64,000 nt of DNA from the NCBI RefSeq assembly GCF_026930045.1, contig NC_072740.1:29364384-29428383 (forward strand). The letters run 5' to 3'. The stretch comes from Uloborus diversus. Lineage: Eukaryota. Shown one piece after another: positions 18,001 to 49,740 of this stretch. Under the pieces are notes generated by a model. It saw only the letters and a list, made by a program, of their open reading frames with translations, had not been told where the DNA came from and ran no database searches. The first letter of the stretch is position 1. Each line of letters opens with the position of its first letter. The position numbers were made by a program, and so were the translations under genes.

Positions 18001-18347
18001 TGTTTTAAATTAAATTTCAGAGTGAAAACATGAATTTATTTATTATTTTTTTCATAAAAATATATTAATATAAGGGTAAAAATCTATTAGTCTGTAATTT
18101 AACTGCAATTAAAGGTCCACGATTATTGAGGAATGGCTGACTTAGGTTTTGATGATCTGTTCTTCTTTAATCTCCATTTTCACTTTATTGGGGAAGCTGA
18201 AAAAATTTCAAATCAAAGACTTCTTAAGAATTTTTACAACATAAGCACAAGTATATAAAGTTTCTAAAACTTGAGCAATAAATACTTTTTAAATTTCTTA
18301 ACACCGTATTCAACTAGCACCCTATCTCCTGTAGACTTCAACATAAG

Positions 18348-18622
18348 TGTTAGAAACTGAAGTGAAGAGAGGTCCAATTGAATGATAGATGTGTGCACGA
18401 GAAAACGTCAGAACACTGAAAAATAAAATTAAAATCTGTGGGAGTTTAAAAATGGTGTTGTAATGCACAAATGTTTTTGGCTCTGTAGTTTTCTGGTAGT
18501 TTAGCAAAATAAATGTCCTTTTTATGAAGAAAAGGTGAACTTCTTGGATTCCAGCACCACGCATTATTTAATGCAGTCCTGATAAAATAACTCATTGTTA
18601 GAATTTGAGTTTGTATTCAACA
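18348..18622 (+). repeat. BEL/Pao 5' LTR (275 bp)
   Basis: Identical by eye to 22789-23063; starts TGTTAG and ends TTCAACA. Confidence 0.9.
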
Positions 18623-18628
18623 TAATTT

Positions 18629-18646
18629 TGGCGTCCGCGACAGGAC
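18629..18646 (+). promoter_or_regulatory. Primer-binding site TGGCGTCCGCGACAGGAC
   Basis: Begins with TGG 6 nt after the 5' LTR; complementary to a tRNA 3' end (...GTCCTGTCGCGGACGCCA). tRNA identity not determined. Confidence 0.6.
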
Positions 18647-18659
18647 GGGTGCTTGGAAC

Positions 18660-21600
18660 TTGTATAAGAAGATGGATTTAACTACATTGAAAGCTCAGAG
18701 AAAAGGACTGAGGGCGTCTTTTACCCTCAGTATGAAAAAAATTGAAGCTGAACTTTTGAAGGAAATTACTGGTTCGGATGAACTTTTAATTTTAAGAAAT
18801 CAGATTTCTGACAAATTCAAGCGGCTAGATGATTGTCAGAGCATAATATCTGAGCTGTTGTTGAAAGATAAAAATGCCGAGGAGGCTTATTATGAAGATT
18901 GTGAAGAAGCAGAAAATTATCGGGACAAGTTTATTCAAATTTGCTCTCTGCTTGATTTAAAATTTGAAAATGTTCAGCGTAATGGTAACATTAGTAAGCG
19001 CAACTTTAAGCTTCCGACGATAGAACTTAAAAAGTTTAACGGCGAAGCAAGAGAATTTTTAAATTTTTGGAGCCAATTCAAGAAAATCCATGAGGACAAG
19101 GGCATTGATAATGAAGATAAAATGCAGTATTTAATTCAATCGATGGAACCTGGTTCGAAGGCAGAAAGATTAGTGCTGAGTTTTCCTGCTACCGGAGAAA
19201 ATTATAGTAGAGCAATACAGCAGTTAAAGGAAAGATTTGGCCGTGATGATCTGCTGGTGCAAGTGTATGTTCGAGATTTATTGAGACTAGTTATGAAAAA
19301 TGCTGCCACAGGACGGGGGAAAGCTGATCTTCCATCCCTCTATGACGAATTGGAAGGAAAACTTCGTGCGTTGGAAACTCTTGGACGGACCAAAGAGAAG
19401 TATGGAGATTTCTTGACACCTTTGGTTGAGAGCTGTCTGCCGGAAGAAGTTTTAGTAACGTGGGAAAGAAGCCGTAACCATGATCTAACCGAAGATAAGA
19501 ACTGTCGCACTTTAGAGCAGTTAATGAACTTTCTTCGCCAAGAAGTCAATGGAGAAGAAATGGTTCGCCTCGCAAGAACTGGCTTCGGCACGAACTCAAA
19601 TTTGCGCAAACGAGAGCCCACAACTGAGAAGGAAAGTGACCTAGCGACAGCTGCAGCGTTAGTAAGTACTGAGAAAAAGGGTAAGCGATTTGAAAGTTGT
19701 ATTTTTTGTGGAAAAAGTCATCCAAGTAAAAGATGTTTCATTGCAAAAAAGATGACTGTAAATGAAAAACAAAAAATATTGTTAAAAAAGGGGGTTTGTT
19801 TTATATGTTTTAATTCAAATCATATTAGTAAATATTGTAATGTAAAAAGAGAGTTAAAATGTAATGGTTGTGGAGAACCTCATTTTTATGTAATGTGTCC
19901 AAAGCTGGAAAGCAAAAGTTGTGAAGCTAAGGATGTAGTAGTTTCTAAGTCTGAAAATTCTCTCTCTAACTTTGATAAAACTCAAACTGTATTTTTGCAA
20001 ACTCTGTGTGTTCGGATTAAATGTAATAATCGAGAAAAAATAATTCGGGCTTTGGCAGATTCTGGTAGTCAAAGTAGTTATGTAAGTCAGAAAGTTTTGT
20101 CTGAGCTGAAAGCAACTCCACTTCGTGAAGAAACAGTGATTCACTCGTTATTTGGGGGGAGGGAAACGAACCCAAAACGGCATAAGATATTCACTGTTGA
20201 AGTGAGGGGTTTGAAAGGGTCTTTTGCTTGTAGTTTTGAAGCTCTTTCTGAAAGGAAAATTTGTAGTTTTATACCAAAAGTTAGCAATCCTTATATTTTG
20301 AATGAATTAAAGAAAAAGAATATTGAAGTTTCTGATTCCCTTTGTAAAATAAAAGAAATTGATCTTTTAATAGGGGCAGATGTTTTAGGAAAATTGCTGA
20401 CGGGACGTTCAGTAGATTTAGAATCCGGTCTTACTGCCGTAGAAATGAAGCTTGGGTGGACTGTTATGGGTAAGCAGAACACAAATGAGAAAGATGATGT
20501 TTTCAGAACATTATCGATGCATGCTAAAAGTATTCCTTTGAATGAATTGGGGGAACTTGAAAGTATAGGAATAACAGATCCCACTTGCAATGTTAATAAG
20601 AAAGCATGCATAGGAGAACATTTAGCTGAATTTGAGGATAAATTGAAAATTCTTCCTTGTGGAAGATATGAAGTAGTGCTTCCTTGGAAGTATGATTTTT
20701 CGAACTTACCAGATAATAAGGATTTAGCCTGGAAAAGGCACGAAAAAATGATCAGTAAGTCAAAATGTAATAATTTTATAGCGGATTACCAAAATGTATT
20801 CAAAGAATGGGAAAACTTGAATATTATTGAGCGCGTACCAGATTCGGAATTAGAGAATAAGTGCCACTATCTACCACATAGGCCTGTTATAAAAATCGAT
20901 AGTAAGACCACGAAAGTTCGGCCTGTTTCTGATGCTTCAGCATCCCAGAGAGGTAAACCTTCTTTGAATGAATGCTTGGTTAAAGGAATGAACCTCATTG
21001 AACTAATGCCAGATATTGATAGATTCCGGTTGCATCCTATAGGGTTGAGTGTAGGCATTGAAAAGGCATGTATCCCTCCTGAATATGAGATTGCACAGAA
21101 GTTGGAAGGTTCTTTCTTTGTGGACAATTGTGTAACAGGGGTTCATAATACCGAAGAAGAAGCGAAGTTCATCGAACAATCGCAACTTATTATGTCAAAG
21201 GGATGTTTTAACTTGCGAGGGTTTGAAAGCAATGTAGCTTCTGAAAATGTTACGAAGCATTCAGGGGAAGCGTCTATTTTAGGAATTTTATGGAATTTGG
21301 ATAATGACACTCTAAGGTGTAATATAAATATAGAAGCATTGACTTGTGAAACAAAAATTACAAAGCGTTTAATTTTATCTACAGTGCAAAAGATTTTTGA
21401 TCCCATCGGCTTATTAAGCCCTACTACATTGCTTCCTAAACTGATACTGCAAGATGCTTGTAAGTTAAAACATTCCTGGGATTTAGAACTACCCCCTGAT
21501 ATTGTAAATAAATTTTTGAAATGTTTCAAGGAAATTGCATTGTCAAATAACGTAACTTTGCCATGCTACATAATAACCAATTCTACAACAGAACTGTATG

Positions 21601-22073
21601 TATTTGTGGATGCTTCTAAAGAAGCTTACGTGGCGTGCGTCTACGATCGTTCAGTAGTGGAAATTGAAGTTGAAATATATCTCGTTAGGTCTAAAACTAG
21701 AGTAGATCCACTAAAATCACTGAGTATTCCTCGGTTAGAGCTTATCGCTTGCTGCATAGGGGATAGACTTTTGCAAGAAAAATGGAAATTGACTCAGCCT
21801 GAGTTGTGGAAACATATTTTTGGAACAATGAATATAGCTGATGTATTGTCGCGAGAATTCAGCCCTAGAGAATTCTTTGACTTCAATTGGTGGGAATTAC
21901 CGACCTGGCTGAAGTTGGCGCTAGAAAAATGGCTATTATGTGAAGTAGATTGGAGACCAAAAGAAGTAGACGCGAAGAGAAAAATATTAACAATTACCAC
22001 TATTGATCTGAATCTGGACGCACCGCTTTTGCCTCCAAAGTTGGTTCGTATTGTTAATGAATTACTAAATTGA
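18660..22073 (+). CDS. BEL/Pao Gag-Pol polyprotein: gag, CCHC knuckles, aspartic protease, N- and C-terminal RT fragments, RNase H; RT core deleted in frame
   Basis: 1137-aa ORF. Gag DUF1759-like region: KLPTIELKKFNGEAREFLNFWSQF...QQLKERFG (~19000-19410). Zinc knuckles: CIFCGKSHPSKRC, CFICFNSNHISKYC and CNGCGEPHFYVMC (~19700-19900). Protease: ALADSGSQ and LLIGADVLGKLL. RT start: CHYLPHRPVIKIDSKTTKVRPVSDASA...GLSVGIEKAC. This is followed almost directly by the RT C-terminus FFVDNCVTGVHNTEEEA...GFESN, so ~110 aa of RT are missing near 21075-21115. RNase H: YVFVDASKEAYVACVY and SIPRLELIAC. The NIADVLSRE...NWWELPTWL tail is also present. Confidence 0.85.
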   Translation: MYKKMDLTTLKAQRKGLRASFTLSMKKIEAELLKEITGSDELLILRNQISDKFKRLDDCQSIISELLLKDKNAEEAYYEDCEEAENYRDKFIQICSLLDLKFENVQRNGNISKRNFKLPTIELKKFNGEAREFLNFWSQFKKIHEDKGIDNEDKMQYLIQSMEPGSKAERLVLSFPATGENYSRAIQQLKERFGRDDLLVQVYVRDLLRLVMKNAATGRGKADLPSLYDELEGKLRALETLGRTKEKYGDFLTPLVESCLPEEVLVTWERSRNHDLTEDKNCRTLEQLMNFLRQEVNGEEMVRLARTGFGTNSNLRKREPTTEKESDLATAAALVSTEKKGKRFESCIFCGKSHPSKRCFIAKKMTVNEKQKILLKKGVCFICFNSNHISKYCNVKRELKCNGCGEPHFYVMCPKLESKSCEAKDVVVSKSENSLSNFDKTQTVFLQTLCVRIKCNNREKIIRALADSGSQSSYVSQKVLSELKATPLREETVIHSLFGGRETNPKRHKIFTVEVRGLKGSFACSFEALSERKICSFIPKVSNPYILNELKKKNIEVSDSLCKIKEIDLLIGADVLGKLLTGRSVDLESGLTAVEMKLGWTVMGKQNTNEKDDVFRTLSMHAKSIPLNELGELESIGITDPTCNVNKKACIGEHLAEFEDKLKILPCGRYEVVLPWKYDFSNLPDNKDLAWKRHEKMISKSKCNNFIADYQNVFKEWENLNIIERVPDSELENKCHYLPHRPVIKIDSKTTKVRPVSDASASQRGKPSLNECLVKGMNLIELMPDIDRFRLHPIGLSVGIEKACIPPEYEIAQKLEGSFFVDNCVTGVHNTEEEAKFIEQSQLIMSKGCFNLRGFESNVASENVTKHSGEASILGILWNLDNDTLRCNINIEALTCETKITKRLILSTVQKIFDPIGLLSPTTLLPKLILQDACKLKHSWDLELPPDIVNKFLKCFKEIALSNNVTLPCYIITNSTTELYVFVDASKEAYVACVYDRSVVEIEVEIYLVRSKTRVDPLKSLSIPRLELIACCIGDRLLQEKWKLTQPELWKHIFGTMNIADVLSREFSPREFFDFNWWELPTWLKLALEKWLLCEVDWRPKEVDAKRKILTITTIDLNLDAPLLPPKLVRIVNELLN

Positions 22074-22088
22074 ACTCCTGGCAAATCA

Positions 22089-22826
22089 GTGTTGAATTAT
22101 GAAGAGTTGAACGCATTGATATGTGATTGTGAATTTGTAATTAATTCAAGGCCTCTAACATACGGGTCGGAAAACCCTCAGGAGTTGATTCCTCTCACAC
22201 CTTCAATGTTTCTTATTGAAAACCGTAGTTTTGATGTTACAGATATTGGTCATGTGGATTTGCAAAGTCCAAAAAAGAGAAAAAGATATAGATATAAGCT
22301 GTTCAATGATTTAAGACAGCGTTTCAGAAAAGAATATTTAGGCCAATTAATTCAAAAACACTATGAGAAGCCAACCCGAGAGCCAAGAGTTGGCGAAATT
22401 GTTTTAATTGGCGACGATAATAAAAAACGCGTGTTTTGGCCTTTGGCGAAAATTATTGAATTGATTCCTGGACGAGATAAAAGGGTTCGCGCTGTTAGGC
22501 TCAAAACTCAAAATGGGATTTTTGTTCGTCCAGTGGAACGTGTTTACCCATTGGAGATACGTACTGATGATGAGGCGGTTGCAATTTCCGACAAAGCCAT
22601 GAGTGTGATGGAATCAAATCCTAAGGAAGGTGTTCAGAAGACTTCTGTTAAAAAGTGTTATCCTGATATTGTTCTGGAAAAATATACCAGATCTGGAAGG
22701 TGTGTGAAAGTACCAAAAAGACTGGATCTTTTAAATAATGAGTGTTACATGTTTGAGACCCTTCCCAGAGTCTCAAAGGGGGGAGGTATGTTAGAAACTG
22801 AAGTGAAGAGAGGTCCAATTGAATGA
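22089..22826 (+). CDS. BEL/Pao integrase C-terminal region (DUF5641-like) only; integrase zinc finger and DDE core absent
   Basis: 245-aa ORF reading LNYEELNALICDCEFVINSRPLTY...LTPSMFLIE...VGEIVLIGDDNKKRVFWPLAKIIELIPGRDKRVRAVRLKTQNG. This is the typical C-terminal tail of BEL/Pao IN. It starts only 16 nt after the gag-pol stop, so the ~250-300 aa IN catalytic region is deleted. The ORF runs into the 3' LTR. Confidence 0.75.
   Translation: MLNYEELNALICDCEFVINSRPLTYGSENPQELIPLTPSMFLIENRSFDVTDIGHVDLQSPKKRKRYRYKLFNDLRQRFRKEYLGQLIQKHYEKPTREPRVGEIVLIGDDNKKRVFWPLAKIIELIPGRDKRVRAVRLKTQNGIFVRPVERVYPLEIRTDDEAVAISDKAMSVMESNPKEGVQKTSVKKCYPDIVLEKYTRSGRCVKVPKRLDLLNNECYMFETLPRVSKGGGMLETEVKRGPIE
22775..22786 (+). 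promoter_or_regulatory. Polypurine tract AAAGGGGGGAGG
   Basis: Purine run 2 nt upstream of the 3' LTR start. Confidence 0.7.
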
Positions 22827-23063
22827 TAGATGTGTGCACGAGAAAACGTCAGAACACTGAAAAATAAAATTAAAATCTGTGGGAGTTTAAAAATGGTGTT
22901 GTAATGCACAAATGTTTTTGGCTCTGTAGTTTTCTGGTAGTTTAGCAAAATAAATGTCCTTTTTATGAAGAAAAGGTGAACTTCTTGGATTCCAGCACCA
23001 CGCATTATTTAATGCAGTCCTGATAAAATAACTCATTGTTAGAATTTGAGTTTGTATTCAACA
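22789..23063 (+). repeat. BEL/Pao 3' LTR (275 bp)
   Basis: Identical by eye to the 5' LTR; preceded by the PPT AAAGGGGGGAGG. Confidence 0.9.
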
Positions 23064-23111
23064 ATAAGCTTAGTGGAATGGGAGTTTGATCAGAATTGGT
23101 TTTCAATTTAT

Positions 23112-23324
23112 TTAGTCAGCTTTGACATTGTCTAGTGGTTGCATGGTATGACTCGCATTAGGCGGTAGGCAAATGATAATTTCATTATCGATAACATGCT
23201 TTACAGTTTCATAGGTCAGCTGGCTTGCCTGTCTTTTCAGATGCCTTGCGAAAAGTTTGAACCATTCTTTAAAGAATGGTGTCTTCCATCCAACCAGATT
23301 TAGTGCAACCATAAGCAACTCCAT
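23112..23324 (-). pseudogene. pogo/Tigger-type (DDE_1) transposase fragment, ancient DNA-transposon remnant
   Basis: Minus-strand reading VGWKTPFFKEWFKLFARHLKRQ...VKHVIDNEIIICLPPNASHTMQPLDNV matches the AWMT..LF.EWL...(LL)DN...v.FLPPNtTS.LQPLDqgv block of pogo-like transposases. It is truncated by a stop and flanked by the two LTR-retrotransposon insertions. Confidence 0.5.
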
Positions 23325-23435
23325 AACATAAGGATTTCAGAATATGAAACTTTTGATAAAATGAACAACTTACTTCAAAGAATAACTTTTAATGAGAAAA
23401 AATGTTTATTCGGCAGCTTATGTCATTAAGCCTGG

Positions 23436-24484
23436 TTGTTGGGCTAAATGCCTTTATTTTTGGTTCTTGAAGGATTTCACCAATATTGTTTAAAAGAAAA
23501 ATCATTTTGTGACTTACCTTTTGCCATTCCGAGAGAAAACTTTGCGCGAAGAATCCCATCCACCTGCCGCCAACACTCAAATGTCCGAGTTTGAATCGGA
23601 AGTGTTTGGAAAACATGCGGCATGCTATGATTGGTTGTTGTCATTCGGCAGATGTCGGTAAACTTCCGAAAGAGCACGTGTCAATGACGTGATGAAATCA
23701 TGTTGAGGTGTTAAGTGCTGAATGCCAAATTAAATAAGAATTGTGTAACCGGCAAGCTGTGTTTTCTCCGGGTTGTGTTGTTTTGGCAATATGCAAATTA
23801 GGTAACGTCACATTGTTTCTGGAAAGGCCGAATCTGGCTATAAATACGCAGACCGGCAGGAGCTCGATCGCTTCGCTTCGTTTTTTTACTTCTACTCGTC
23901 TCCTCGTCTTGTGTTGTCTGTGTCCCGTGAACGTGTTCGTCAAATGTCATCCTAAATTTTTTTGCTATTGGCCTCTTGGTGAGGTCTGGTTTTTCCTGGA
24001 AAAGCACTGATGATGTTTTGAGTTTGGAACCCGCGTGTTGTGATGACGTCTATAAAAGCAAAGAGTTCTAAGTTTCCCTGATGTGGGTCTTTTGTTCTCC
24101 TGCGGAAGAAGATCGCGTCCATCCCTGGTATACCTTTCCCTGATGTGGTGAACTGTTGCTCACGCGGTGTGAATCGACCTGCCTGCAATTCGTGGAAATT
24201 GCCATGCTGTCCAACGACCGGTGAGGCGTCACCTTGGATCACCAACAGGACTTTTAATCCATGCATGGACTCATTGTAAGATCTCTTTTTCTAATTTTTC
24301 CCGGGGAACAAATCATTGTGTTGTAACCAATTTTCAATATGTGTCAAATAAATGTTTTTCAGTGTAAAGAATGATTCATGTTTTATTTTCTTCGGGCAGA
24401 CCACTACCTCAAATTTTTAGTTGGAAATGAGTTGCCTAATTTTCAGCTTAGCTGTAGGCCATAAACCTCAAATTATATCCAACA
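23436..24484 (+). repeat. copia 5' LTR (1049 bp)
   Basis: Matches the 3' LTR except for a few SNPs (e.g. t/c at 23750 vs 29068; g/a in gaggtctGgttttt vs gaggtctAgttttt; gatc vs gaac near 24240 vs 29557). Contains a TATA box and AATAAA. Confidence 0.9.
23839..23846 (+). promoter_or_regulatory. TATA box (TATAAATA) in LTR U3; same motif in the 3' LTR near 29156
   Basis: Sequence context ggctataaatacgcagaccggcagg. Confidence 0.5.
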
Positions 24485-24486
24485 GG

Positions 24487-24497
24487 TGGTAGCAGAG
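24487..24497 (+). promoter_or_regulatory. Primer-binding site TGGTAGCAGAG, complementary to the 3' end of initiator tRNA-Met
   Basis: Lies 2 nt after the 5' LTR. Eukaryotic tRNAi-Met ends ...CCUCUGCUACCA, whose reverse complement is TGGTAGCAGAGG. Confidence 0.75.
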
Positions 24498-24524
24498 TCG
24501 TGTGGTTGATCTGCCCGGAGAAAA

Positions 24525-26333
24525 TTGAATCATTTCTTTATTATGGAGAAAGATTATAGAAACGTTGAGAAGTTGGGCTCCCATAATTGGGCTACCTGGT
24601 CCAAAGATATAAAAATGGTGCTCATAGAAAGGGATTTATGGGAGATTACCCAAAAGAAACCAGAAGGGGAGTTAACTAGTGCTGACAGAAAAAGATGTGG
24701 CCAAGCTTTAGCCATCATCTATTTAAACTTGGAAAAAGATACAAAAAGGTTAATTGATAATTTGGAAGATCCTAATGAAGCCTGGAAAGCCCTTAAGGCA
24801 AATTTTGAACCCCCATCTTTGGCCAGAGTAGCCGCATTGTGGGAATCCTACTTCTCTTGCAAAATGCAAGAAGGTGAAACGGTGGGATTATTCGCTGCAA
24901 GGTTGGGGGGAATTTTTAACCAACTAGTCGAAAATGGATATATTATGGAAGAAAAACTCAGAACTTTTCAATTGATACGGTATCTACCTCCTAGTTTCAG
25001 CAGCATTGTTCAAGCCATCTACAGATGGGAAGGAGAGAAATTTACTTTCTCGAAAGTAAAAGATGAACTACTAGCTGAGGAAGGTAGGATTAGGTATTTG
25101 GCCGAAGAGCCTAATATAGAAAATTCGGCAATGTTTTCAAAACCCGGAAACTCCGGAATGGCAAATGGTAGGGGTAAATTTCTTGCTAAAAATAAAGTTT
25201 GTTACATTTGCAAAAAGAAAGGGCATATTGCGTCGAAGTGTTGGAGCCGTAATAAAGTAAAACAGGATAGGAATTTTAAATTTCAAGCCAAAGAAGACCC
25301 TCGGGCAGGAATGTTTTGTTCAGTAAATGAAAACGAAATTTCTGCAAACACTACCTACCCAAAATGTGAGGATACATGGCTATTGGATAGCGGCAGTACA
25401 TCTCATTTTTGTAGAGATAAATCGTTATTTGCCGAGCTAGAGCCTGTACAAAACACACAAATGGAGGTAGCTGTAGGAAATGTGAAGAGCCAGGTAGAGG
25501 GCATTGGGAAAGTGATTTTTAAAATTGAATCAGATGGAAAATTAGTTACCATCACATTGAATAACGTTTTCTATGCTCCAACACTGCGACGCAACCTAAT
25601 TTCTGGTTCTTGTATAGATAGACAGGGCTATAAGCTCAAATGGTTGCCCGGAAAGATCTGTGTCTTTAATCAAGAAAATGTTAAATTATTTACAGCAAAT
25701 TTAATAAATAAACTTTATCATGTTAAACCAAATTTTTATATTGATTGTGAACATGTTAATTATACCAAATTTTTTAAGACCAAGGACCCGTCTGAAGGGG
25801 CCAATATGGTCAGTATTGATATGGAAAAATGGCATAGGAGATTTTGCCATATAAATATGGAAAGTATCACCAAAACGAGTAAACTTGGTGCAGTCCAAGG
25901 ACTGGAGATTAAGAAGGGGCAAAAACCCAATTGTGACCCTTGTCAATTAGGGAAAATGAGGAAGTGCTCGTTTAAATCTATGCCAGAAAGGCGTACTAAT
26001 TCTGCACTTCAATTGCTCTACATGGACCTGATGGGACCCCTTCAGACCGAGTCCTTGGGGGGAAAGAAATATATTTTTATAATTATAGATGATTTCTCAA
26101 GAAAGTCATATGTTTTCTTTTTAAGAACAAAAAATGAGGCATTTAATGTTTTTGTAAATTTTCAAAAAAGGACTGAAAGATTCCTGAATTCAAAAATTTT
26201 GGCTATCCGTTCCGATAATGGAACAGAATTTGTTAACAAAGATTTTGAAAACTATCTCACCAATCAGGGAATAAAAATAGAGCGGACCAATTCCTACACC
26301 CCGCAAATGAACGGGGGTAGTAGAAAGGTATAA
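24525..26333 (+). CDS. copia Gag-protease-integrase (N-terminal part), ended by a frameshift
   Basis: 602-aa ORF. Gag: WATWSKDIKMVLIERDLWEI. CCHC: CYICKKKGHIASKC (~25200). Protease: LLDSGSTSHF (~25386). Integrase zinc finger: HRRFCH...CDPCQLGK. Integrase catalytic Ds: LLYMDLMGP and IRSDNGTEFV, then YTPQMNG. The frame is broken at 26313-26317 (GGGGG); the +1 frame continues NGVVERYNLTIMNGVRSML, which is the conserved NG.AER.NRT motif. Confidence 0.9.
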   Translation: MNHFFIMEKDYRNVEKLGSHNWATWSKDIKMVLIERDLWEITQKKPEGELTSADRKRCGQALAIIYLNLEKDTKRLIDNLEDPNEAWKALKANFEPPSLARVAALWESYFSCKMQEGETVGLFAARLGGIFNQLVENGYIMEEKLRTFQLIRYLPPSFSSIVQAIYRWEGEKFTFSKVKDELLAEEGRIRYLAEEPNIENSAMFSKPGNSGMANGRGKFLAKNKVCYICKKKGHIASKCWSRNKVKQDRNFKFQAKEDPRAGMFCSVNENEISANTTYPKCEDTWLLDSGSTSHFCRDKSLFAELEPVQNTQMEVAVGNVKSQVEGIGKVIFKIESDGKLVTITLNNVFYAPTLRRNLISGSCIDRQGYKLKWLPGKICVFNQENVKLFTANLINKLYHVKPNFYIDCEHVNYTKFFKTKDPSEGANMVSIDMEKWHRRFCHINMESITKTSKLGAVQGLEIKKGQKPNCDPCQLGKMRKCSFKSMPERRTNSALQLLYMDLMGPLQTESLGGKKYIFIIIDDFSRKSYVFFLRTKNEAFNVFVNFQKRTERFLNSKILAIRSDNGTEFVNKDFENYLTNQGIKIERTNSYTPQMNGGSRKV

Positions 26334-26343
26334 TTTAACCATA

Positions 26344-28620
26344 ATGAATGGTGTGAGGTCTATGCTCAAGGATTCTGGATTGGGGGATGAGTTTTGGGCT
26401 GAAGCCGCTCTTTGTTTCAACTATGTAAGGAATCGGACGGTAATAGGAAATATGGACAAGACCCCATTCGAGCTGTTTTCTGGACGTAAACCTTCAGTGA
26501 GGCACCTACGTATTTTTGGGTGTACTGCCTATGTAGGTCAGCCTAGGTCCAAACTAAAAAAGTTAGATATGAGGGCTACCAAGGGGATCATGGTCGGATA
26601 CGCCTTACGTACCAAAGGGTACAGAATCTGGGATCCTGAAACCAGAACAGTCACAGAAACTATTAACGTAAAGTTTAATGAAAATGAAAGATGGGGGGAA
26701 TTAAAAGTCCAAAATAAAAATGAGAGAAAATTTAACTTTATCAGGCCTATAAGTGAAGTTCAACTTGAACAGGAAATCCAGGAGAGTGTTGAGCAAACTC
26801 CCTGTGAAAAAATTAAATGGGTTAGAGAAGCCAAAAAGAGAAAGACCGGGGATAGGACTGATATTTATTATACAATTGCTGGTAAAAATAAAGTAAGATT
26901 AAATTCATTAAAACAGGTTCTAAAATATTGTAGTGAAAATAAAATAGAGTATAAACCAAAACTTTTTGACTTTTCATCTAAAAATCCAACAGTAGGGGAA
27001 ATCTGTGACGACAGTGAAAGTTCGGGAGAAAGTGAAGAAGCAAGTTTGGTAGAAATTTTTATACCGAACTCGTATAGGCAATGTATGGCTACCCCCGAGG
27101 TGGACAACTGGAAACTGGCCATGGAGTCTGAATTGGATGTCATTAACCAAAGAGAGGTGTGGGACCTTGTACCCCCACCAGAGGGGAAACCAATTTTGGG
27201 AAACAGGTGGGTCTACGACCTCAAGGTAAATGACAGGGGTGAAGTTGTAAGATACAAGGCCAGATTAGTTGTTAGGGGGGACCGTCAGTCAATTGAGTCA
27301 TATTCTGAAGTTTTCAGTCCAGTAATTGAGTTTTCACTTGTAAGAGTTTTCTTTTCTATTTTTATATGTCTTTTAAAATGGTGTCACTCACAAATTGATG
27401 TAAAAAATGCTTACCTGTATGCTGATTTAGAGGAACAAATCTACATGAGACAACCAGAGGGTTTTGTCAGTAAAAGCCACCCTAATTTTGTCTGTAAATT
27501 GAAGAAGTCTCTCTATGGACTACACCAGTCCGGAAGAAACTGGTTCTTAGAAATAGACAGTGTTCTTCGTGGTTTTGGTTTTCAAAAATTAAAAGGATGT
27601 AATTGTGTATACCATAGAGACAAAAATACTTTTCTTCTTATTTATGTAGATGATATAATAATTCTAGCAAAAAATGAAAATTTAATTAAAAAGGTAATCA
27701 ATGAAATTAAAAGTATGTATGATATTAAAGAAATGGGGAAAACCAGAAAGCTCCTGGGGATTGAATTTGTGGAAGATAAAAATAATCTTTTCATTCACCA
27801 AAGCTCTTATATTTCGAAGGTCTTGGAGTTATTCTCTGACTACTATGTGCCAAATTCAACCCTCCCAATCTCAAAGGGTACAGTTTTGTCGAAGGACGAC
27901 TGCCCGAAAACTGAGGAAGAAAAAAGGGAAGCAGAAAAGCTCCCATACAGAAATTTGTTGGGTTGTATGGCATACATAGCGGGGAAGACCCGACCTGACA
28001 TTTCGTATGCGGTGAATATTTTTTCCCAATTTCAAGCAAATCCCGGAAGAAAGCATTGGGATTTTCTATTAAGATTGCTAGGGTATTTAAAGCATACAAT
28101 ATCATACAAACTAAATTTAAGTTCAATCAATAGTGTAAATCTACGGGGATTTTCAGACTCCGATTACGCCGCTAATCGGGAGGATAGGGTCTCAATGGGA
28201 GGATCAATTTTGTGTATTGATCGGGTCCCGATTAATTGGAGGACATTTAAACATAAATGTGTTGCGTTATCCACAATGGAAGCAGAATATATTTCACTTG
28301 GTGAAACTGCAAAAGAAATGGTCTGGCTGAAGAGGATAATCACAGAAATAAGTGAATTAGATATTGAAAACCTCCAGCTTAGAGATACAATTATTTATTG
28401 TGATAACACTGCAACAATTGATTTTTCTAAGTCTCCCATTGAGAATTCCCGTACAAAACACATTGATGTAAGGTACCATTTTTTAAGAAATTTAATTGAG
28501 CAAAAGATTTTTTTGATTAAATATGTGAGGACAAATATAAACATCGCGGATATTTTCACTAAACCCCTATCTAAGAATTGTTTAAATAAACTTTGTAAAA
28601 TTATATTTAATTGGGATTAA
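26344..28620 (+). CDS. copia integrase C-terminal part, reverse transcriptase and RNase H
   Basis: 758-aa ORF. IN: TPFELFSGRKPSVRHLRIFGC. RT: WDLVPPPEGKPILGNRWVYDLK, YKARLVVRGDRQ, DVKNAYLYADLEEQIYMRQPEGF, KLKKSLYGLHQSGRNW and YVDDIIILAKN (~27643). RNase H: GFSDSDYAANREDR, STMEAEYISLGETAKE and IYCDNTATIDFSKSPIENSRTKHIDVRYHFLR. Confidence 0.9.
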   Translation: MNGVRSMLKDSGLGDEFWAEAALCFNYVRNRTVIGNMDKTPFELFSGRKPSVRHLRIFGCTAYVGQPRSKLKKLDMRATKGIMVGYALRTKGYRIWDPETRTVTETINVKFNENERWGELKVQNKNERKFNFIRPISEVQLEQEIQESVEQTPCEKIKWVREAKKRKTGDRTDIYYTIAGKNKVRLNSLKQVLKYCSENKIEYKPKLFDFSSKNPTVGEICDDSESSGESEEASLVEIFIPNSYRQCMATPEVDNWKLAMESELDVINQREVWDLVPPPEGKPILGNRWVYDLKVNDRGEVVRYKARLVVRGDRQSIESYSEVFSPVIEFSLVRVFFSIFICLLKWCHSQIDVKNAYLYADLEEQIYMRQPEGFVSKSHPNFVCKLKKSLYGLHQSGRNWFLEIDSVLRGFGFQKLKGCNCVYHRDKNTFLLIYVDDIIILAKNENLIKKVINEIKSMYDIKEMGKTRKLLGIEFVEDKNNLFIHQSSYISKVLELFSDYYVPNSTLPISKGTVLSKDDCPKTEEEKREAEKLPYRNLLGCMAYIAGKTRPDISYAVNIFSQFQANPGRKHWDFLLRLLGYLKHTISYKLNLSSINSVNLRGFSDSDYAANREDRVSMGGSILCIDRVPINWRTFKHKCVALSTMEAEYISLGETAKEMVWLKRIITEISELDIENLQLRDTIIYCDNTATIDFSKSPIENSRTKHIDVRYHFLRNLIEQKIFLIKYVRTNINIADIFTKPLSKNCLNKLCKIIFNWD

Positions 28621-28740
28621 ATGAGGGGGGCGTATCAAATTTTTGAACTGTTTTTCAAATGTATCTTTTGTAAATATAATATGAATGTAGTTAAATGTTT
28701 TTAATGTATATAATGTGTTTTTTTTGATGAAATTCCTTCA

Positions 28741-28752
28741 AGAGGGGGGAAC
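28741..28752 (+). promoter_or_regulatory. Polypurine tract AGAGGGGGGAAC
   Basis: Immediately upstream of the 3' LTR. Confidence 0.7.
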
Positions 28753-28753
28753 T

Positions 28754-29801
28754 TGTTGGGCTAAATGCCTTTATTTTTGGTTCTTGAAGGATTTCACCAA
28801 TATTGTTTAAAAGAAAAATCATTTTGTGACTTACCTTTTGCCATTCCGAGAGAAAACTTTGCGCGAAGAATCCCATCCACCTGCCGCCAACACTCAAATG
28901 TCCGAGTTTGAATCGGAAGTGTTTGGAAAACATGCGGCATGCTATGATTGGTTGTTGTCATTCGGCAGATGTCGGTAAACTTCCGAAAGAGCACGTGTCA
29001 ATGACGTGATGAAATCATGTTGAGGTGTTAAGTGCTGAATGCCAAATTAAATAAGAATTGTGCAACCGGCAAGCTGTGTTTTCTCCGGGTTGTGTTGTTT
29101 TGGCAATATGCAAATTAGGTAACGTCACATTGTTTCTGGAAAGGCCGAATCTGGCTATAAATACGCAGACCGGCAGGAGCTCGATCGCTTCGCTTCGTTT
29201 TTTTACTTCTACTCGTCTCCTCGTCTTGTGTTGTCTGTGTCCCGTGAACGTGTTCGTCAAATGTCATCCTAAATTTTTTTGCTATTGGCCTCTTGGTGAG
29301 GTCTAGTTTTTCCTGGAAAAGCACTGATGATGTTTTGAGTTTGGAACCCGCGTGTTGTGATGACGTCTATAAAAGCAAAGAGTTCTAAGTTTCCCTGATG
29401 TGGGTCTTTTGTTCTCCTGCGGAAGAAGATCGCGTCCATCCCTGGTATACCTTTCCCTGATGTGGTGAACTGTTGCTCACGCGGTGTGAATCGACCTGCC
29501 TGCAATTCGTGGAAATTGCCATGCTGTCCAACGACCGGTGAGGCGTCACCTTGGAACACCAACAGGACTTTTAATCCATGCATGGACTCATTGTAAGATC
29601 TCTTTTTCTAATTTTTCCCGGGGAACAAATCATTGTGTTGTAACCAATTTTCAATATGTGTCAAATAAATGTTTTTCAGTGTAAAGAATGATTCATGTTT
29701 TATTTTCTTCGGGCAGACCACTACCTCAAATTTTTAGTTGGAAATGAGTTGCCTAATTTTCAGCTTAGCTGTAGGCCATAAACCTCAAATTATATCCAAC
29801 A
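28754..29801 (+). repeat. copia 3' LTR (1048 bp)
   Basis: As above; preceded by the PPT AGAGGGGGGAAC. Confidence 0.9.
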
Positions 29802-29805
29802 CTGG

Positions 29806-30190
29806 TATTATACCCATTCCACCCCACTTAAAAAAATTTAACATATTTATTAAAATCTATGAAATTTTTCTTTTCTGATTTTTTCAGTTGACGAAGGAAT
29901 CTTCCTTTAATGAAAATAACAGCAAAAGAATGCTATCTAAATACAAACAAAATCCTGAAAACAAAGTTACAATGATATCAGTTAGTTTTGATTTTTACAA
30001 TATAACTTACAAAAAGGCTGCCACTAAACTGACAGTTTCCATTCAGTTTTTTCTTGAACCAAAATAAAGTCAAACTATTGTAAATAACATGAGTGTTTTT
30101 ATTTTTTTTAAAAAAATATTTTTTTCTTTTCCGTAACTCAAAAGATAAATAAACTACCCATTTCACCCCACATAACCATTTCACCTCTCC
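29806..30190. mobile_element. Fragmentary MITE-family sequence abutting the copia insertion site
   Basis: ttatacccattccaccccac at 29806 is the reverse complement of the left terminus of the 17745-18000 MITE; a related ctacccatttcaccccac lies near 30158. Confidence 0.3.
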
Positions 30191-49212: not shown

Positions 49213-49740
49213 TCCCTTGATATTTTTGTAGTTCCAAACATCCTTTATATGTCCACAAAATGCAGAATTATACATAATATATTTCAAAATTTTCTCCGGG
49301 GGAAAAAACCCCGGGCCCCCTAAAATTTGCTGGTATTCTGTAGCCCCCTTAAAGAAGGTTGCCGCCAATGATCGAAAGTGATTTTTGACGGTGTTTTTGG
49401 TACCCAGCGAGCACAAATTTTTCTGTAACGCAACAGTTCTAGAGCTATAGAATGTAGGGACGATCTTGAAACTTCTGGAAATTGCATCGATAATTCACTT
49501 ATCATGAATCTTCGTTTCCTTAACCGCTTTGTCAACTCGTTGAACAAGGTCGTCTGTAGCCACAGACTTGCGCCCCAGACCCCCTTCATCATGCACATTA
49601 TTAATAATAATATTGTTAATAACAACATTAAAAAATAAATTTTCAGTGCATTTATTATTCTGTTAGTTTCTTTTATCTCTTTTAAAATGAAGCATAACTG
49701 GTAAAAGTAATAGATCCAGTGTTTCTTAGAATATGGCAAG
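49213..49740 (-). pseudogene. mariner-like transposase N-terminal HTH fragment within a truncated element
   Basis: Minus ORF segment (~49517-49364) FMISELSMQFPEVSRSSLHSIALELLRYRKICARWVPKTPS matches the mariner HTH block (..IA..L.VS...V...L...GM.K.CA.WVP..L). The terminus 49219-49330 is shared with the 55350 MITE. Confidence 0.45.

Follow-up and report, generated by a model that had tools for sequence, protein, structure and literature searches.

A young Ty1/copia retrotransposon with a predicted methyl-CpG-binding domain in the spider Uloborus diversus

This report concerns a stretch of 64,000 nucleotides from the spider Uloborus diversus (NCBI RefSeq assembly GCF_026930045.1, contig NC_072740.1, positions 29,364,384 to 29,428,383 of the forward strand), referred to below in its entirety as the window, and more especially a full-length long terminal repeat (LTR) retrotransposon which was located by direct sequence analysis at positions 23437–29801. 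We consider it very probable that this is one young, full-length Ty1/copia element of the CopiaMBD lineage, which is non-autonomous as assembled and carries in its integrase core an extra G that is likelier to be real than to be an error. DNA methylation normally silences transposons, and CopiaMBD is, to our knowledge, the only group of retrotransposons known to carry a captured DNA methylation reader, a methyl-CpG-binding domain (MBD). The kind is thus already known and what is probably new here is a member in another spider family, the Uloboridae, from which we found no report of CopiaMBD.

Structure and coding capacity of the element

The element lies on the forward strand and is bounded by two LTRs of 1048 bp, at 23437–24484 (TGTTGG...CCAACA) and 28754–29801, with copies of a target-site duplication, CTGGT, read from the sequence at 23432–23436 and 29802–29806. 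The LTRs are identical at 1045 of their 1048 positions (99.71%), the three mismatches being located at 23746 (T/C), 23988 (G/A) and 24239 (T/A), and there are no indels. Assuming an arthropod-like rate of about 3–5e-9 per site per year, this would make the element a young insertion with an age on the order of 0.3–0.5 million years. TATAAA motifs occur in the LTR at 23839 and 24051 and an AATAAA motif at 24347.

An 11-nt primer-binding site, TGGTAGCAGAG, at 24487–24497 (+) begins 2 nt past the 5′ LTR and is complementary to the 3′ terminus of the animal initiator tRNA-Met, taken here to be ...CTCTGCTACCA; an 11-mer would be expected to match by chance, over a few positions, with a probability of about 1e-6. 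No tRNA genes were found in the 64-kb window. At the other end of the internal region a polypurine tract, AAGAGGGGGGAA, at 28740–28751 (+) stops 2 nt short of the 3′ LTR. When the element was compared with the remainder of the window by blastn and tblastn, neither a second copy nor a fragment was detected, and a scan of the LTR for sigma-70 promoters and terminators, a type of scan that is irrelevant to eukaryotic elements, gave 0 promoters.

A first-pass annotation, made from the sequence alone, had described a near-intact Ty1/copia element with LTRs of ~99.7% identity, an intact CTGGT duplication and a tRNA-iMet primer-binding site, and all of these features, together with its order of the domains, were reproduced here. 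Only its start point at 23436 needed to be moved, by one base, as this position holds the final T of the duplication, which happens to equal the base preceding the 3′ LTR.

With respect to base composition, none of the three differences between the LTRs is a CpG transition. The CpG density of the LTR is 4.0 per 100 bp (observed/expected ratio, o/e, 0.91), which is markedly richer than the DNA around the element (1.9 per 100 bp, o/e 0.67), and exceeds that of the internal region 24485–28753 (1.8 per 100 bp, o/e 0.55).

The coding region is interrupted by one frame break only, a GGGGG run at 26313–26317 (+) with a one-base excess (G4 to G5), and is consequently divided in the assembly between two frames of the forward strand. 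The first, ORF1 (24543–26333), begins with the ATG at 24543, ends in ...NGGSRKV followed by a stop codon, and encodes gag, a CCHC zinc knuckle, the protease and the N-terminal part of the integrase. The second (26318–28620) terminates with a TAA at 28618–28620, includes the mechanically defined ORF2 starting at the ATG at 26344, and encodes the C-terminal part of the integrase, the MBD module, the reverse transcriptase (RT) and RNase H (RH).

The N-terminal half of the product carries a copia-type gag (Retrotran_gag_2) at 24612–25088 (Pfam E=2.8e-25, 89.2 bits), followed by the zinc knuckle CYICKKKGHIASKC at 25200–25241, which is an exact C-X2-C-X4-H-X4-C motif with a Pfam score of 16.7 bits, below the 20.8-bit cutoff. 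An aspartic protease (PR), matching Pol_BBD with E=8.5e-21, occupies 25377–25631 and has its active-site LLDSGS at 25380–25397. The integrase (IN) begins with an HHCC zinc-binding region (gag_pre-integrs, 25818–25958, Pfam E=7.1e-11), with the H..H pair at 25833–25850 and the C..C pair at 25932–25955, and continues into the catalytic core (rve, 26004–26334, Pfam E=2.5e-12). The catalytic triad consists of the Asp residues in YMDLMGP (26019–26039) and IRSDNGTEF (26205–26231) and the Glu in the restored NGVVER (26310–26334), which lies 36 residues past the Asp of IRSDNGTEF.

Downstream from the frame break, the SH3-like C-terminal integrase domain (SH3_retrovirus) was located at 26479–26694 (Pfam E=2.2e-29) and the copia-type RT (RVT_2) at 27154–27837 (Pfam E=2.7e-58, 197.9 bits), with the YVDD motif at 27643–27654. 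The connection region and RNase H were assigned to 27943–28617 on the basis of the DEDD columns and a fold model. Searches of the C-terminal RNase H sequence against Pfam and PDB produced no match, apart from a spurious one, through a repeat, to lysostaphin. Nevertheless, the D/E/D/D columns are invariant across 13 aligned copia C-termini and all four residues are retained in the window element, within FSDSDYA (28150–28170), STMEAEY (28270–28290), IYCDNTA (28393–28413) and IADIFTKP (28543–28566). Moreover, the AlphaFold model of this region has a pLDDT of 83.3 and its top PDB structure matches are RNase H, with E-values down to 2e-5.

The combined evidence from Pfam, alignments and fold models gives the domain order gag-CCHC-PR-IN-SH3-MBD-RVT_2-RH, with the integrase upstream of the RT. 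The six domains listed in the first-pass annotation (gag, CCHC, PR, IN, RT and RH) are therefore all present and in the order given, although the MBD between IN and RT had been omitted from that list. From its LTRs, domain order, RVT_2 and gag matches and priming sites, the element belongs to the Ty1/copia superfamily (Pseudoviridae). It shares with Drosophila copia and tobacco Tnt1 the TG..CA LTRs, the 5-bp duplication, the initiator tRNA-Met site, a copia-type gag, an RVT_2 domain and a single gag-pol ORF ordered PR-IN-RT-RH, and differs from canonical Ty1/copia elements in the additional MBD between IN and RT. Its LTR is also several times longer than that of Drosophila copia (about 276 bp), and the tRNA pairs through its 3′ CCA end with the primer-binding site, whereas Drosophila copia is primed by an internal tRNA fragment.

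Frameshift in the integrase core

The reading frame could be verified upstream of the break through the conserved ...YTPQMNG and downstream from V-V-E-R-Y-N, and since only GGGGG separates the two verified frames, the indel must lie within the G run. On removal of one G, a polyprotein of 1358 amino acids was obtained with 0 stops. This confirms what the first-pass annotation had proposed, namely that the G5 run is the sole frameshift and that deleting one G restores NGVVER and a polyprotein of ~1360 amino acids.

The extra G precedes, by one codon, the catalytic Glu that completes the DD35E triad of the integrase. Given this position, and the loss of the frame thereafter, no functional integrase, MBD, RT or RNase H would be made from the copy as assembled. 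Judged from its reading frames, it is a non-autonomous copy whose predicted products are gag, the protease and an integrase that is truncated and dead. Because the LTRs, primer-binding site and polypurine tract are intact, its mobilisation in trans would still be possible.

The frameshift site is covered by 38 relatives, and in all 38 the motif NG(V/I/T)(A/S/V)E(R) is uninterrupted. No close copy was found from which the G run could be judged, the best match in the protein search with the repaired polyprotein being 37% identical overall. Exact-sequence look-ups of ORF1 and ORF2 returned no record and a scan of metagenome contigs for the G4/G5 site gave 0 matches.

The first-pass annotation had left undecided whether the fifth G reflects a mutation or a homopolymer error, and rightly so. 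The evidence is rather closely divided, with a lean towards a real and very recent slippage mutation. The divergence of the LTRs (K = 3/1048 = 0.0029) means that the 4.08-kb ORF should have accumulated about 5.8 substitutions after the insertion and, at the usual 0.1–0.2 indels per substitution, one indel in the ORF is unsurprising.

The alternative, that the fifth G is a consensus error and that the real element has GGGG and encodes an intact, potentially active and autonomous CopiaMBD of 1358 amino acids, is a serious one, even if we judge it the less probable of the two. Errors in long-read assemblies are most often of the homopolymer type, and the defect falls exactly within a homopolymer. 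Apart from the fifth G, there is not a single stop in 1358 codons, the catalytic motifs (DSGS, HHCC, D-D-E, YVDD and DEDD) are all intact, and the 99.71% identity of the LTRs is accompanied by a perfect target-site duplication. In addition, the U. diversus assembly, which is the probable source of the sequence, had only 13x HiFi consensus coverage, and this weighs against a real mutation. On the other hand, a 5-nt run is short for errors in HiFi or Illumina-polished sequence, and the homopolymer runs of at least 5 nt speak for the quality of the assembly at this locus: all nine runs shared between the LTRs, including two T7 runs, are equal in length, and 50 of the 51 within the ORF leave the frame undisturbed. 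Furthermore, the point changes predicted for the ORF from the LTR divergence, about 6, would lead one to expect a single slippage indel regardless of assembly quality. A real slippage mutation remains the preferred explanation, by a modest margin.

The MBD module and the CopiaMBD lineage

Between the integrase SH3 domain and the RT lies a module of 55 amino acids, KWVREAKKRKTGDRTDIYYTIAGKNKVRLNSLKQVLKYCSENKIEYKPKLFDFSS, encoded at 26815–26979 (+). The most informative results for this region were obtained at the level of the family. Nineteen relatives carry a collinear module which matches that of the window element with E-values from 7e-16 to 1e-7, and 16 of these 19 modules match the MBD profile PF01429 (best 7e-8). 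When a profile built from the 19 modules was compared with PDB, 29 of the 30 matches were MBD/TAM domains, MBD4 being the best (1.8e-4) followed by MBD2, MeCP2, MBD3 and BAZ2B. An AlphaFold model of the window module (pLDDT 80.9) predicts three strands and a helix, and its best PDB folds are those of MBD4, BAZ2B-TAM and MeCP2-MBD, with TM scores of 0.55–0.61 and rmsd values of 2.5–2.7 Å.

At the level of individual residues, the window module is collinear with those of 18 relatives and shows 29–44% identity to them. Three columns of the alignment are invariant (R19, F61 and F63) and three others nearly so (R14, R24 and D26), and all six residues are kept in the window element, which also has Y28 and R38 in conserved columns. 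The DNA-contacting residues R106, R111, D121, Y123 and R133 of MeCP2 presumably correspond, by position, to R14, R19, D26, Y28 and R38 of the module. On this family-level profile evidence and the predicted fold, we identify 26815–26979 as an MBD homologue.

An RT-domain phylogeny had been put forward in the first-pass annotation as the means of placing the element within Ty1/copia, and we constructed a neighbour-joining tree of the RT-RH region (150 sequences, 499 columns, 200 bootstraps) from the matches of a search with ORF2 against 1.8 billion representative proteins, together with those of the repaired-polyprotein search and three relatives' loci. One 20-member clade (bootstrap 0.905) contains every one of the 17 sequences in which an RT is accompanied by a detectable MBD, and its other three members are two RT-only ORFs and one truncated Araneus gene model that keeps the MBD tail. 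The window element and its closest relative, P0167, share a subclade of seven members (bootstrap 0.995) and are 53% identical over IN-C/MBD/RT/RH. Named relatives in the repaired-polyprotein search derive from the araneid spiders Araneus ventricosus, Argiope bruennichi and Trichonephila clavipes, and no copia proteins of Strigamia or Stegodyphus were among the matches of that search.

CopiaMBD elements, Ty1/copia elements with an MBD in the same ORF between the integrase and RVT_2, were described by de Mendoza, Pflueger & Lister in 2019 (Genome Res 29:1277; PMC6673714), the hosts being the centipede Strigamia maritima and two spiders, Stegodyphus mimosarum and S. dumicola. They are monophyletic on the basis of their RT, and their MBD is under purifying selection. 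DAP-seq experiments with the MBDs of three Strigamia elements demonstrated binding to natively methylated, CpG-dense DNA, and the DNA surrounding young copies is denser in CpG and more methylated than that around other LTR elements. The targets are transposons in Strigamia and methylated gene bodies and introns in Stegodyphus, and the authors proposed that the MBD steers integration while leaving other roles possible (all PMC6673714). A literature search for the name CopiaMBD in other papers found none.

The presence of an MBD between IN and RT, the most distinctive trait of the window element, assigns it to this lineage, and we place it there on the joint evidence of the profile, the predicted fold and the RT tree. 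In common with the published elements it has the copia architecture, an apparently host-derived MBD in the ORF after the integrase and before RVT_2, an arthropod host, the predicted DNA-contacting Arg, Asp and Tyr residues, and a position among MBD-bearing elements that form one RT clade. It differs in that its host family, the Uloboridae, lies outside those reported, in that its MBD scores below the Pfam threshold and its flanks are poor in CpG, and in that its identity to even the nearest relative in the databases is only 53%. The host range of CopiaMBD would thereby be extended beyond one centipede and one spider genus.

Several observations weigh against this placement, or against a function of the module in reading methylation. 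Taken alone, the window MBD scores only 16.3–18.3 bits with Pfam (E=0.0018 at 18.3), which is under the 21-bit cutoff, and in a single-sequence search of PDB nothing was significant, the top match being an unrelated biotin ligase (E=0.32) with MBD4 at E=0.42. Foldseek E-values for the model are weak (0.2–2), as one commonly finds with a domain of 60 residues. Membership of CopiaMBD rests on clustering with MBD-bearing elements, araneid ones among them, other than the published ones of Strigamia and Stegodyphus, and the tree was constructed by neighbour-joining rather than maximum likelihood. Finally, the 150-bp flanks of the insertion contain 0.67 CpG per 100 bp (o/e 0.34), compared with 1.9 per 100 bp (o/e 0.67) elsewhere in the window and a window median of 1.67 per 100 bp. 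The CpG-dense target reported for CopiaMBD is thus not seen at this insertion, although it is a statistical property of the family on which a single copy is uninformative.

Some of these points would suit a different explanation, that 26815–26979 is a degenerate, MBD-like linker between IN and RT which no longer reads methylation, and that the element behaves as a plain copia. Apart from the scores of the isolated module and the CpG-poor flanks, this could draw on the position after the second Arg finger, where the window element has Leu-Asn in place of the usual Arg-Ser or Ser-Lys, and on the report that spider transposons are mostly unmethylated (PMC6673714). We regard it as unlikely, in view of the collinear module shared with 18 relatives, the retention of R19, F61, F63, R14, R24 and D26, and the confident model with an MBD-like fold. 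For the published family, moreover, the MBD showed a Ka/Ks below 0.1 and methyl-specific binding (PMC6673714). A more general lesson for annotation is that the call of a plain copia can conceal an extra domain which scores under the Pfam threshold.

The life cycle can be proposed from that established for copia elements. Transcription would start in the 5′ LTR and a single gag-PR-IN-MBD-RT-RH polyprotein would be translated and then cleaved by its own protease. Initiator tRNA-Met, bound to the primer-binding site, and the polypurine tract would serve as the primers of reverse transcription, and the integrase would insert the cDNA, generating the 5-bp duplication, which is CTGGT in this case. 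The Strigamia CopiaMBD domains bind methylated CpG in DAP-seq (PMC6673714), and by analogy the MBD, fused just past the integrase SH3 domain, would most likely tether the integration complex to methylated DNA.

There is a parallel in the chromoviruses of the Ty3/gypsy group, which also have a chromatin or epigenome reader at the C-terminus of the integrase that is thought to steer integration. However, in chromoviruses the RT precedes the IN, and the chromodomain reads histone methylation in contrast to the 5-methylcytosine read by an MBD. A young copy that is complete but for one base provides a clean template for testing whether the MBD steers integration.

One relative, P0225 (766 amino acids), was observed to carry three near-identical MBD modules, at residues 203–264, 380–441 and 576–637, about 180–195 amino acids apart, which could be a tandem duplication within the element or a mis-assembly.

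In-frame TGA codons in the relatives and surroundings of the insertion

The search with the repaired polyprotein also revealed that 17 of the matches have ORFs of 756–894 amino acids which end just past the MBD. At each of the eight such loci examined, the ORF stops at a single in-frame TGA and the RT-RH sequence resumes in the same frame, to give a total of about 1370–1400 amino acids. These codons are located at L001:2635–2637, L003:2849–2851, L004:2912–2914, L006:2689–2691, L007:2719–2721, L008:2754–2756, L009:2748–2750 and L010:2655–2657, and their context is TGA CTA G at five loci, TGA CTA A at two and TGA CCA at one. The window element has AGT (Ser) at the corresponding position, 27043–27045 (+), and sense codons also occur there in P0167, P0168 and P0001.

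The sequence UGA CUA(G) has been documented as a context prone to readthrough (bioRxiv 10.1101/2021.04.18.440353), and the synonymous positions around the relatives' TGA are scrambled. No conserved RNA structure was predicted downstream of the codon (0 pairs). We consider the TGA-CTA of the relatives to be a candidate for programmed readthrough of UGA-CUA, placed between IN-MBD and RT. A TGA between MBD and RT is unmentioned in the CopiaMBD paper (PMC6673714), and in our literature search we came across no account of recoding at a point between IN and RT, either in copia elements or in any LTR retrotransposon.

It is tempting to extend this to the whole lineage, such that CopiaMBD elements would normally produce their RT-RNase H by programmed UGA-CUA(G) readthrough and the window element would be a derived, stop-less Ser variant. 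If the extra G were an assembly error, the element might, in addition, be currently active and methylation-guided in Uloborus. We offer this reading tentatively, as a possibility that falls somewhat short of being the favoured one. The readthrough lead is the only potentially new biology encountered, and it is located in relatives outside the window; if confirmed, the conserved TGA-CTA would represent a new recoding position in retroelement biology.

Interruptions of the frame inside the polyprotein are known from other members of the copia group. One might therefore ask whether the G5 site itself is a programmed +1 ribosomal frameshift that sets the ratio of upstream to downstream products, as in Ty1. 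Such shifting is employed by Ty1, Ty2 and Ty4, which belong to the same superfamily, and the shift required at G5 is likewise +1. We nevertheless reject this reading as scarcely conceivable: the site is situated within the catalytic core of the integrase, a single codon ahead of the DD35E Glu and away from the gag/pol boundary, the motif is encoded uninterrupted in one frame by each of the 38 relatives, the closest ones included, and the sequence contains no Ty1-type slippery heptamer. In Candida Tca2 the interruption is a gag-UGA-pol readthrough site (PMC2194720), and the in-frame UGA of the window element's relatives resembles it in type. The recoding sites of Ty1 and Tca2 are conserved and situated at the gag/pol boundary, whereas the G5 shift occurs in the integrase core of this copy alone, and the UGA of the relatives, unlike those sites, falls between IN-MBD and RT.

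As regards the insertion site, a Pfam scan of ten ORFs in the flanks produced no match. The reconstructed empty site is not repeated elsewhere in the window, and nothing therefore suggests that the element inserted into a repeat.

A second young retrotransposon, of the BEL/Pao type, was observed at 18348–23067 in the same orientation and ends 365 bp upstream of the copia insertion. Its LTRs of 279 bp (18348–18625 and 22789–23067) differ by one indel and it is flanked by an ATAAG target-site duplication, the whole spanning 18343–23072. The ORFs match DUF1759, Peptidase_A17 and DUF5641 and lack an RT or integrase core, so that the element is internally deleted. Its protein is 89–92% identical to proteins of Uloborus diversus, the next best matches being to other spiders at no more than 60%.

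The GC content of the window, 34.4%, is close to the 33.8% of the Uloborus diversus genome and, together with the BEL/Pao protein, points to Uloborus as the probable host. GC skew ranges from +0.14 to +0.21 across 18001–28000 and is about 0 elsewhere in the window, a pattern attributable to the purine-rich coding strands of the two same-strand retrotransposons. Further downstream, an ORF of 139 amino acids at 49320–49739 (−), for which there was no Pfam match, has a C-terminal half (...FMISELSMQFPEVSRSSLHSIALELLRYRKICARWVPK...) that resembles, by eye, the N-terminal helix-turn-helix of a mariner-type transposase.

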